A stretch of DNA of 64,000 nt from a virus. Its lineage: Duplodnaviria > Heunggongvirae > Uroviricota > Caudoviricetes. The notes beneath the pieces are model-generated. The model was given only the letters and a program-made list of their open reading frames with translations, was not told the origin of the DNA and made no database searches. The position numbers and the translations under genes are program-made. Where the stretch lies: positions 34,473-98,472 of the IMG/VR virus record IMGVR_UViG_2878528002_000001; one strand, given 5' to 3'. Shown piece by piece: positions 61,602 through 64,000 of the stretch (positions are counted from its first letter, which is position 1; each line of letters begins with the position of its first letter).

Positions 61602-62122
61602 ATGGATATTTTTAAAGAACCAGTAAAAGCAACTATGGATTGTAGTGATTTCATCACATTAATGAGTATTTATGGTACGAAGATGCGTAGTTATAATCCA
61701 GATGAGATTATTGATATTAAAGTATTAGATGATAATAACCGTGTAGTTAAAGTAAAATTTGCTGACGGATATGTTGTAAAAAATGTCAGGGATGAAGAAG
61801 ATACATTTGACATCGAGGAATGTTTATATCTCGCTTTGGCTAAAAACTTTATCGAAAAGAGTATACATATGAGGGAATTCTTCACATGGCAGAGGAACTT
61901 AAATACAAAAAGGATGCTGTTTCAATCGTAAAACATGGTGTAAGAGTCTATAAAAAGTACCTTGAGGAAGAGAAATCTAAAAAAGAAGAAGTAGAACGCT
62001 ATGAATGTAGGAAAGAAAAGAAGATTGCTCAGAAACAGCGGAGAAAAGAACGTGCTAGAAGAGAACAGATTGAGATTCAGAAACAGGCATATCTGGAAGC
62101 CATGAAGGAGAACGCATCATGA
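61602..62122 (+). pseudogene. Hypothetical gene with 1-nt deletion in A5 run (61842-61846)
   Basis: Adding one A joins ...LALAK to KLYRKEYTYEGILHMAEELKY..., giving 173 aa. Confidence 0.6.
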
Positions 62123-62581: not shown

Positions 62582-62789
62582 TGAAACCGTAGTTTCATAG
62601 GGATTTTGATGCTACATATTGTGGTGTCATTAAATTGAATATACAATATATAGTGGTTGTGAATCTATATATTGTGGTTATGGAACAGCTAGGAACTTGT
62701 TTGGCGACAACCTAGCTGCTCCGATTGAAATATAGGATAAGCTATATTGATATTTAGTATATCAAATCTATTTGACTTATTCAAGTCAA

Positions 62790-63017
62790 GTTTATCTCAT
62801 GTATTATAGAATTCCAAAACTATGAGAGGAAGAGAACGGATTGTAGGCTTGTTTTAGAGATATGTAAATTCATAAGATTCCAAAACCAGAAATCCTTGAG
62901 AACGGGGACTCTGTAGTTTTAGAGGTATGTAAATTCATAAGATTCCAAAACTTTCCACCTGTGAAAGAAGAACACTCGATAGTTTTAGAGGTATGTAAAT
63001 TCATAAGATTCCAAAAC
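62790..63017 (+). CRISPR. Mini CRISPR array: 3 intact 36-bp repeats plus 1 degenerate repeat, 3 spacers (30, 29, 30 bp)
   Basis: GTTTTAGAG(G/A)TATGTAAATTCATAAGATTCCAAAAC at 62851-62886, 62916-62951 and 62982-63017; degenerate copy ending ATTCCAAAAC at 62820. Confidence 0.95.
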
Positions 63018-63029
63018 CTCAAATTACAT

Positions 63030-63240
63030 ATCTTATGAATTTATAGAATGTGAACTAAAAATAGACTAAGAGAAATCTACGTTATTACAAGATAATATAC
63101 CATTGTGTAGCTCTAGCAGTGTCAATATCATTCAAATTTAAACATGCGTTACATTCATATCATGCCTGGCGCAAGTGATTTGAATACTCCAAGACTTGTA
63201 ATAACATTGTCGAAGAGCATGACCGATTTTATATCGAGAA
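63030..63240 (+). ncRNA. tracrRNA-like anti-repeat fused to an IscB omegaRNA scaffold
   Basis: ATCTTATGAATTTA (63030-43) is the exact reverse complement of repeat nt 15-28; CTAAAA (63055-60) pairs repeat nt 2-7; then AGACTAAG..CTACGTT; helix 63081-90/63196-205; ACATTGTCGAAGAG motif; GCTCT/AGAGC pseudoknot-type pair. Confidence 0.88.
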
Positions 63241-63263
63241 TAATTTTATATAAGGAAAATAAT

Positions 63264-64000
63264 ATGAAGTACTTAGATTTTGTATTAATGATTGATAAGA
63301 ATAATCACCCTTGTTGTCCTATTAACAATGGAAAAGCAAGATATTTGTTAAAAAATGATAAAGCAAAAATAATTAATCACGAACCAGTAGTTATTCAAAG
63401 AATTGATGATTATAAATCAGAAAATGAAATAAGAGATATTTTTGAGCTAAAAATTGATAGTGGATATCTGAATATTGGATTTTCTGTTAGCGATAATCAG
63501 CATGAATATTTAGCTGGGCAAGTCGAGCTTTTAACTAAAATGAAAGATCGACTCTATACACGAAGTACTTTAAGAAGAGGTAGAAGAAATAGATTAAGAT
63601 ATCGTAAAAATAAAAATATGGATTATAAAATAACAAATAATCCTACATATAAAAACGGAAATGAGGATGGTTGGTTTGCTCCATCTATTGAACATAAAAT
63701 GGAATCCCATATAAGATTAGCGAAAAAGATTATGTCTTGGATTCCGGTAGATAAGATCATATTAGAAGTTGCGAAATTTGACATTCAAAAATTAAAGGCT
63801 GATGCAGAAGGAAAAAATATATCCGGAAAAGATTATCAAAATGGTGAAATGAAAGGATATGAAAATGCTGCCACCTATGTAAGGGCAAGAGATGAATACA
63901 CATGTCAAATCTGTAAGGATAAAAAAGGTAAAAATGCGTTACCTGGAAAAATACAGGTTCATCATATTATTCCACGAGAGAATGGTGGGTCAGATATTCC
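63264..64000 (+). CDS. iscB: IscB RNA-guided endonuclease (truncated by window end)
   Basis: Hand translation: PLMP-like HPCCP..GKARYLLK; RuvC-I LKIDSG; bridge helix RRGRRNRLRYRK; GWFAPS; RuvC-II LEVAKFD; HNH RDEYTCQIC..HHIIPRENGGSD. AAGGA RBS. Confidence 0.93.
   Translation, partial: MKYLDFVLMIDKNNHPCCPINNGKARYLLKNDKAKIINHEPVVIQRIDDYKSENEIRDIFELKIDSGYLNIGFSVSDNQHEYLAGQVELLTKMKDRLYTRSTLRRGRRNRLRYRKNKNMDYKITNNPTYKNGNEDGWFAPSIEHKMESHIRLAKKIMSWIPVDKIILEVAKFDIQKLKADAEGKNISGKDYQNGEMKGYENAATYVRARDEYTCQICKDKKGKNALPGKIQVHHIIPRENGGSDI

Follow-up and report, generated by a model that had tools for sequence, protein, structure and literature searches.

A short CRISPR array followed at once by a sequence complementary to its own repeats, by an omegaRNA scaffold and by an iscB gene raises the question of how the nuclease of this locus is supplied with guides, and in particular whether spacer and scaffold are parts of one RNA or of two. 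CRISPR-associated IscBs are regarded as surviving intermediates that link the guide RNAs of transposons to the crRNA/tracrRNA pair of Cas9. The window, i.e. the whole stretch of 64,000 nucleotides analysed here, corresponds to positions 34,473-98,472 of the 174.7-kb provirus record IMGVR_UViG_2878528002_000001, and other coordinates below refer to the window unless indicated otherwise. The host of the locus is a large gut prophage that carries IscB, a small nuclease ancestral to Cas9. We consider it very probable that the region upstream of iscB encodes the guide RNA for a CRISPR-associated IscB carried by a phage, and that in this RNA the repeat:anti-repeat duplex replaces the guide-adaptor hairpin and yields, by default, a single guide folded in cis.

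Layout of the locus, its IscB protein and its relatives

All elements of the locus lie on the + strand, in the order degenerate repeat, three spacers and three repeats, 12-nt linker, anti-repeat, omegaRNA scaffold and iscB. The three 36-nt repeats (62851..62886, 62916..62951 and 62982..63017) have the sequence GTTTTAGAGGTATGTAAATTCATAAGATTCCAAAAC, with a G10A substitution within the internal-loop region of repeat 1. They alternate with spacers of 30 nt (spacer 1, 62821..62850), 29 nt (spacer 2, 62887..62915) and 30 nt (spacer 3, 62952..62981). The degenerate repeat at the 5' end (62785..62820) has 18 mismatches to the last repeat and retains only its 3' end, ...AGAATTCCAAAAC; it is the mark of an old, trailer-like array end, and most related arrays likewise start with a degenerate repeat. 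Downstream of repeat 3, the linker and apical loop (63018..63029) begin with seven nucleotides conserved among lineages, CTCAAAT. The anti-repeat that follows comprises an upper-stem strand (63030..63045), its side of an internal loop (GAATGTGAA, 63046..63054) and a lower-stem strand, CTAAAA (63055..63060). The omegaRNA scaffold (63061..63240) then provides the nexus, the central stems, the pseudoknot region and a terminal hairpin at 63224-63238, and the 5' part of iscB occupies 63264..64000, the gene continuing past the window (L001:2165-3733).

A -35-like box, TTGACT (62772..62777, + strand), kept in the closest relative (L033), marks a candidate start region for the array transcript. Consensus scans detected only a weak promoter site at 62725-62754 (TTGAAA-18-GATATT), no better than those in shuffled sequences, no separate scaffold promoter between the array and the anti-repeat, and no convincing terminator. 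As nothing promoter-like separates the array from the anti-repeat, one scaffold is expected per array transcript. A direct pattern search revealed no second repeat or anti-repeat elsewhere in the provirus genome; a search of the provirus with the RF02033 profile missed even the known copy and is therefore uninformative on further copies.

The product of iscB is 523 residues long and harbours an RRXRR domain (PF14239, E=1.2e-37, residues 7-194) and an HNH domain (PF01844, E=3.8e-8). Its N-terminal PLMP/RRXRR domain aligns to that of a solved IscB, and the IDSG, LEVAKF, HHIIPR and HYTDA motifs align to IDPG, LELNRF, HHVVPR and HYLDA of solved IscBs. The RuvC domain is split by the HNH insertion, the nuclease motifs are intact and there is no REC lobe, which is the architecture of IscB. 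The nearest solved relatives are IscBs, and the sole Cas9 among those listed is YnpsCas9 (9k31, E=8e-8). No Y1 transposase TnpA (PF01797) was found in the 174.7-kb provirus record, nor any IS200/IS605 context, and the locus, rather than residing in an IS200/IS605 element, is fixed in a phage lineage as one of its genes. Cas1 (PF01867) is absent from the provirus and from 12 related phage records, seven of which are at least 90% complete. The provirus encodes no RNase III; the host enzyme is likely present.

We collected approximately 30 related loci with the same layout, mostly from phage contigs of 80-220 kb. All 17 loci from IMG/VR (contigs of 17-222 kb, most of them >80 kb) have the array, a CTCAA-type linker, the anti-repeat, the scaffold and iscB, and the further metagenome loci display the same order. 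A scan of IMG/VR with the scaffold motif contributed a single genuine addition, L042; its remaining new matches fell by chance in coding regions. The IscBs of this clade form about 40 clusters with 44-93% identity and range from 513 to 579 residues, with ordinary IscBs standing apart at approximately 40% identity. The arrays reach nine units in L028, and at the other extreme L002 has a single repeat and is a pure natural single guide. The related loci yielded 53 distinct spacers, and spacers differ between relatives. An array beside iscB with relative-specific spacers and an ncRNA with a covarying anti-repeat (see below) are among the features of CRISPR-associated IscBs; both are present, and the locus is a CRISPR-associated IscB.

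A repeat:anti-repeat duplex in place of the guide-adaptor hairpin

A first-pass annotation of this DNA had paired repeat nt 13-28 with 63030-63045, and its coordinates and pair counts proved correct throughout. A repeat search found that each of the three repeats forms a 14-nt, 100% complementary arm pair with 63030-63043 (repeat nt 15-28), and this upper stem is lengthened by G14:U63044 and U13:A63045. The lower stem proposed in the same annotation, between UUUUAG (repeat nt 2-7) and CUAAAA (63055-63060), is present as well, separated from the upper stem by an internal loop to which the repeat strand contributes 5 nt and the anti-repeat strand 9 nt. With 12 nt between the last repeat and the anti-repeat, the hairpin formed in cis has the 20-nt loop that had been predicted, and it is part of both the MFE and the centroid folds of 62952-63265. 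The duplex does have the lower-stem, internal-loop and upper-stem layout of a crRNA:tracrRNA pair, to which it had been likened. Its energy of -19 kcal/mol compares with a window background of -9.0 +/- 2.9 kcal/mol. When both stems were forced, the duplex held no more than some 1.6% of the RNA-only ensemble as computed, which suggests that the lower stem probably needs the protein.

A cmscan search matched 63040-63223 to the IscB omegaRNA family HEARO (RF02033; 52.6 bits, E=2.4e-9) over model positions 1-211. The score is below the Rfam gathering score of 83, a shortfall explained by the absence of the first stem and by sequence divergence. All HEARO helices are aligned and paired except this first stem (GUCAA...UUGAC), which is the sole missing part, and the nexus, central stem and pseudoknot-region architecture is found upstream of iscB. 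The element AUAGACUAAG...CUACGUUAU, which the first-pass annotation had placed at the nexus, indeed aligns to the nexus of HEARO, which comes immediately after the first stem of the model. In an ordinary IscB omegaRNA, L019 from a Bulleidia genome, GTCAA...TTGTTGA lies at the same place, immediately before TTAGACTAAG. Because the first HEARO stem alone is missing and the L019 stem lies at that very site, the repeat:anti-repeat duplex occupies the position of the omegaRNA guide-adaptor hairpin, for which it stands in. Structural studies have equated the guide-adaptor hairpin with the repeat:anti-repeat duplex of Cas9 (PMC9640706, PMC9581776). The scaffold itself is highly conserved, with 95% mean column identity among the window, L182 and L033, even though their IscBs are only 76-93% identical.

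The first-pass annotation had suggested looking for repeat/anti-repeat covariation in relatives and had held that its absence would speak against the duplex; covariation was found. RNAalifold, run on a MAFFT alignment of 11 lineages, returned zero pairs, the variable linker having misaligned the anti-repeats, and covariation was therefore counted by script in ungapped registers, with a permutation control. There are at least nine repeat types, and for each of them the anti-repeat is of the matching type. Over repeat positions 15-30, cognate combinations form on average 15.2 standard pairs out of 16, vs 12.2 for non-cognate ones, and none of 100,000 permutations attained the observed cognate pairing total. 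Compensatory double changes affect repeat positions 18, 21, 23, 25, 26, 27 and 28 of the upper stem, as well as position 6 of the lower stem, where A6:U is replaced by G6:C in L028 and L031. Close relatives form a stepwise series, from C21:G and A25:U in the window to G25:C in L182 (93% IscB identity), and to U21:A together with G25:C in L033 (76%). In the pairing table across lineages G:U pairs are common and C.A combinations rare, which indicates that the + strand RNA is the functional, selected one. The covariation in relatives is what places the duplex decisively above chance.

The distance between the last repeat and the anti-repeat is 5-30 nt in every lineage. In L183, L187 and L009 the helix nearly reaches the end of the repeat, leaving CUCAAA within an apical loop of approximately 7-11 nt. 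The idea that the last repeat makes a natural single guide thus extends beyond the window, cis folding being possible in every lineage, with loops of 11-29 nt.

The central idea of a fused repeat:anti-repeat guide is therefore correct, but it has already been published for CRISPR-associated IscBs. CRISPR-associated IscBs whose ncRNA includes an array were described by Altae-Tran 2021 (Science 374:57, as summarised in PMC11610941), and the ncRNA of DelIscB has a spacer, a repeat and an anti-repeat hairpin and can be trimmed to an sgRNA, with its natural processing left open (PMC12660989, Zhang et al. 2025). As in these systems, the array is upstream of iscB, one ncRNA would comprise spacer, repeat, anti-repeat and omegaRNA body, a repeat/anti-repeat hairpin is found in the stead of the guide-adaptor hairpin, and adaptation genes are absent (here, Cas1). 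Unlike these systems, the present lineage resides on phages or prophages of 80-220 kb; its protein is longer (513-579 aa vs 457) with a divergent C-terminal third, and its arrays have type II-A-like 36-nt repeats, 30-nt spacers and a conserved CTCAAA after the last repeat. We set the lineage apart from DelIscB and from the 2021 loci by their descriptions, and it may overlap the 2021 set.

With ordinary OMEGA IscBs (HEARO RF02033; OgeuIscB 7XHT/8CSZ), the system shares the PLMP/RRXRR domain, the split RuvC and the HNH, as well as the nexus and the remaining scaffold, a guide 5' of the first stem, and an RNA that is located upstream of iscB and reaches its start. It differs from them in that the first stem is made of repeat and anti-repeat, in having several exchangeable spacers rather than one flank-derived guide, and in the absence of TnpA and of IS200/IS605 context. 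The resemblance to the crRNA:tracrRNA of type II-A systems (PMC5382924) includes a 36-nt repeat that starts with GTTTTAGAG and ends with CCAAAAC, 30-nt spacers, the succession of lower stem, bulge, upper stem and nexus, and the ATTTGAG-GTTTT motif beside the terminal repeat. By contrast with type II-A, a REC lobe is missing from the effector, a full omegaRNA serves as scaffold and Cas1 is absent from the phage; the anti-repeat is contiguous with the array and would share its transcript, whereas the type II-A tracrRNA is a separate gene, and the junction motif is located at the transcription-distal end and on the other strand. With arrays of one to nine repeats, repeats of several types and compensatory changes that proceed step by step, this phage lineage constitutes a dense natural series, which allows the direct study of one guide RNA splitting into two.

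Supply of guides to IscB

In the mechanism that we favour, a single + strand transcript would comprise the array with its three spacers, the 12-nt linker, the anti-repeat and the scaffold of approximately 180 nt, ending just before iscB. The guide-adaptor hairpin would be swapped for a duplex whose 5' strand is the CRISPR repeat and whose 3' strand is the anti-repeat. The default product would be one cis-folded RNA, consisting of the last spacer, the last repeat, the loop, the anti-repeat and the scaffold, and it would direct IscB to cut matching DNA of rival mobile elements. The upstream spacers might gain access to the scaffold by alternative pairing within or between transcripts, possibly with the help of host RNase III. 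When the anti-repeat was constrained to pair with one or another of the three repeats in a single transcript, an equilibrium model of ensemble energies gave repeats 1, 2 and 3 about 30%, 5% and 65%, respectively, which are model numbers only. On this model the last repeat is favoured, and upstream repeats could reach the anti-repeat within the same transcript. Pairing in trans, the route that the first-pass annotation had assigned to spacers 1 and 2, is not their sole option, since repeats 1 and 2 could pair within the same transcript.

A more restrictive scheme is conceivable, in which the spacer adjacent to the anti-repeat alone acts as a guide and the upstream spacers are silent, being reused only after recombination between repeats brings them to the adjacent position. 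The lack of a detectable scaffold promoter, which implies one scaffold per array transcript, is in keeping with it, as are the predominance of the cis hairpin in the equilibrium model (65%), a hairpin that would also form first during transcription, the decay of upstream repeats with distance from the anti-repeat (Spearman rho 0.66-0.72; see below) and the existence of the single-repeat locus. However, the degenerate 5'-most copy aside, upstream repeats have no more than 0-5 mismatches to the last repeat, and their substitutions, as read by eye rather than by a scripted count, are a mixture of changes that keep and changes that break pairing with the anti-repeat. In addition, about 35% of the model ensemble falls on repeats 1 and 2 of the same transcript, and arrays of up to nine units are maintained (L028). 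We therefore regard a strict restriction to the last spacer as doubtful, albeit possible.

Alternatively, the locus might operate mainly with a dual RNA like that of Cas9, host RNase III, which the first-pass annotation had raised as a possible maturation factor, cutting intermolecular duplexes to release crRNAs and a tracr-like scaffold, so that the cis hairpin would be a mere by-product of proximity. The geometry of the duplex is like that of crRNA:tracrRNA, 36-nt repeats and 30-nt spacers are those of type II-A, and the processing of the DelIscB ncRNA is treated as an open question in the literature (PMC12660989). Against this stand the failure to find an independent scaffold promoter, the lack of a phage-encoded RNase III (although the host enzyme is likely present) and the constant location of the anti-repeat 5-30 nt past the last repeat. 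That constant proximity, together with the tight loops of 7-11 nt in some lineages, points to selection for the cis hairpin, and a dual RNA as the main mode appears unlikely to us.

It is highly improbable that the array and anti-repeat serve host Cas9 as a decoy or hijacking RNA, in the manner of phage single guides that subvert Cas9. Type II-A-like repeats and a type II-A leader-junction motif would suit such a role, and phage sgRNA mimics do exist (bioRxiv 10.64898/2026.06.01.729453). Nevertheless, the anti-repeat continues into an IscB omegaRNA of approximately 180 nt and not into the tail of a Cas9 tracrRNA, the RNA is contiguous with iscB and co-conserved with it in every lineage, and changes in the anti-repeat track those in the repeats of the same phage. 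Cas9 has natural single guides of its own, tracr-L and the phage vsgRNAs / rAcrIIA1 (bioRxiv 10.64898/2026.06.01.729453, 10.64898/2026.06.03.729762). As in tracr-L and vsgRNAs, guide, repeat-like strand and anti-repeat are naturally fused here in one phage-encoded RNA; those RNAs are approximately 100 nt long and act as repressors or decoys of host Cas9, whereas the present one would guide the phage's own IscB. Finally, functionless chance complementarity beside an orphan repeat cluster, for which it could be argued that by energy alone the duplex is just ~3.4 sd above the window background, is ruled out by the covariation counts with their permutation control, and the conserved position of the anti-repeat, the conserved scaffold in some 30 loci and the perfect natural protospacers also contradict it.

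Growth of the array and targets of its spacers

We put forward, tentatively and as a possibility rather than a probability, that the array grows at its 3' end, beside the anti-repeat, with a host type II-A Cas1-Cas2 using the inverted CTCAAA(T) motif in trans, so that the newest spacer is the cis guide. A new spacer would then be inserted directly before the repeat that forms the hairpin with the scaffold, which would make a ready-made natural single guide, and older spacers would shift upstream and decay. On the minus strand of the window, 63024-63011 reads ATTTGAG-GTTTTGG, which includes the exact type II-A leader-repeat junction motif, ATTTGAG-GTTTT. ATTTGAG is the leader end of Group 1 type II-A systems, for which about 10 nt of leader and one repeat were reported to be sufficient for adaptation (PMC5382924). 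The first five or six nucleotides of CTCAAAT are conserved in nearly all lineages (NWTTGAG on the minus strand), whereas the remainder of the linker varies. The junction motif is inverted relative to transcription, and its role as a leader is putative.

The arrays themselves appear to have a polarity. A degenerate repeat is found at the promoter-side end in almost every one of them, and the farther a repeat lies from the anti-repeat, the more mismatches it has to the last repeat (Spearman 0.66, p=6e-8; 0.72 when the 5'-most repeat is left out). In L028, L031 and L187, derived states of the repeat form a nested series in the direction of the anti-repeat, as judged by eye, without a script, using the repeats of sister lineages as outgroup. 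The upstream spacer is identical in L005 and L067, which differ in the spacer proximal to the anti-repeat. Taken together, the motif, the decay at the 5' end, the nested states, the L005/L067 pair and the absence of Cas1 from 13 phage records suggest that a host integrase inserts spacers beside the anti-repeat.

Other observations run counter to growth at the 3' end. CUCAAA could be conserved as an apical RNA loop, the 5' end of the L183 array shows a canonical ATTTGAG-GTTTTAGAAC on the + strand, and a diverged 3'-end spacer is common to L010 and L014. We also considered TTTGAG/TTTGAC boxes at the 5' ends of arrays as a + strand leader and rejected them, as they are found at variable distances and are partly derived from the repeat itself, at its 5' end, except in L183.

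CRISPR systems devoid of adaptation genes have been described on other mobile elements, namely type IV-A3, whose spacers are acquired in trans (bioRxiv 10.1101/2023.06.23.546257), and Cas12r of the Thermus Lalka phages (bioRxiv 10.64898/2026.04.20.719267). Like them, the present system is borne by a mobile element, lacks adaptation genes (here, Cas1), has spacers that vary among close relatives and targets other mobile elements; it differs in its effector family and in that the growing end of the array, as proposed here, abuts the scaffold. Growth at the scaffold end is the one point that may be new. If it does occur there through the host type II-A machinery, spacer capture would be coupled in an unusual manner to immediate guide formation, in a compact nuclease with a natural single-guide design.

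Spacer 3, the guide in cis with the scaffold, has 30/30 matches in six metagenome contigs and 29/30 matches in two more, and the flanks of the protospacer vary at wobble positions. The protospacer is part of a 92-aa ORF, and the mobile element that carries this ORF, plasmid-like or phage-like, also codes for TubZ, an ArdC-N plus metallopeptidase protein, a tyrosine integrase or resolvase, Uma2 and peptidoglycan-binding proteins. No target was identified for spacers 1 and 2 within the collections searched. The exact 3' 20-mers of spacers 1, 2 and 3 had no match in IMG/VR, comparison of the three spacers with 15 related phage records returned repeat-to-repeat matches only and no protospacer, and searches of the array against PLSDB plasmids and of the whole RNA region against INPHARED phages gave nothing meaningful.

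Among the relatives, five sister phages have a spacer in common for which a 30/30 match lies within a 2740-aa gene of another phage. This protospacer and the perfect one of spacer 3 are both located on the coding strand, where the guides cannot pair with the mRNA, and this orientation implies that DNA would be the target. The 3' flanks of these two independent protospacers disagree (GCAAACG vs CGCATCT), the IscBs that own the spacers being just 67% identical, and no TAM consensus is derivable from the pair. As natural and perfect matches, these protospacers are indirect evidence for the predicted TAM-dependent cleavage of DNA with array spacers as guides. With perfect targets in a mobile element and in another phage, the system looks, from its spacer matches, like a phage weapon against rival mobile elements. 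When the 53 spacers were compared with 13 complete or partial genomes of related phages, just two diverged matches were obtained (27/30 and 25/30), from two spacers of other sisters, and both are in one 68-aa HTH gene of phage G010. This gene neighbours a SIR2-like gene, next to the array of that related phage.

Spacer matches among related phages

In L012, an IscB-array locus from the related phage record G010, an insertion (L012:1524-2478) separates the array from the conserved upstream gene; it carries two genes, one for a 68-aa HTH protein and one for a 262-aa SIR2-like protein. Spacers of sister phages match the HTH gene at 27 (L011) and 25 (L009) of 30 positions, which suggests that sibling phages target one another's accessory cassettes. 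At another related locus, two adjacent spacers (L028:2344-2475), GATGTACCCGGCAGATGAAGTCCAGATGTT and GATGTACCCAGCAGATGAAGCAGAAATGTT, represent variants of a single protospacer. It appears that this target site was sampled on two occasions, each time from a different allele. As for spacer 1 of the window, a 15-nt stretch (62829-62843) matches positions 62058-62072, part of the phage's own upstream gene, at all but one nucleotide (14/15), with divergence beyond. This partial match may have arisen by chance; alternatively, spacer 1 may be aimed at a diverged homologue of the upstream gene in another phage.

Sequence elements 5' of the array

In the window, the interval separating the upstream gene from the array harbours a hairpin (62682-62722; GGAACAGCTAGGAACTTGTTTGGCGACAACCTAGCTGCTCC) with the conserved loop motif GTTTGGCGAC. 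Further copies are present in L012 (about 2490-2530) and, about 100 nt 5' of the first repeat, in the related loci L002 and L005. The loop motif recurs in several lineages with varying stems, and in these phages the hairpin could serve in regulation or as a terminator. A 29-nt element with ATATTGTGGT at its end is also found in the window, in two copies 53 nt apart (62597-62678), and inverted copies of the related CTATATATAGTGGTT are present 5' of the L002 and L005 arrays. These elements may represent a promoter or operator motif of the phage.

Array ends, iscB start and neighbouring genes

The short-read Logan contigs L063-L066, L182, L188 and L189 all terminate within the last repeat, at GAGGTA..., as would be expected if the 36-nt repeat is longer than the assembler's k-mer, with loss of array content in these assemblies as the result.

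Gene callers give a 563-aa iscB product (e.g. P0002) because of an in-frame ATG located 40 codons 5' of the conserved MKYLDF start. The resulting N-terminal extension (63144-63263) falls within the omegaRNA scaffold and is probably untranslated.

In L033, the closest long relative, a truncated TnpB-like ORF (HTH_OrfB_IS605 and Cas12f1-like_TNB; L033:1314-2003) lies about 500 nt 5' of the IscB array, and a gene for a reverse transcriptase (L033:6841-7572) is located downstream.
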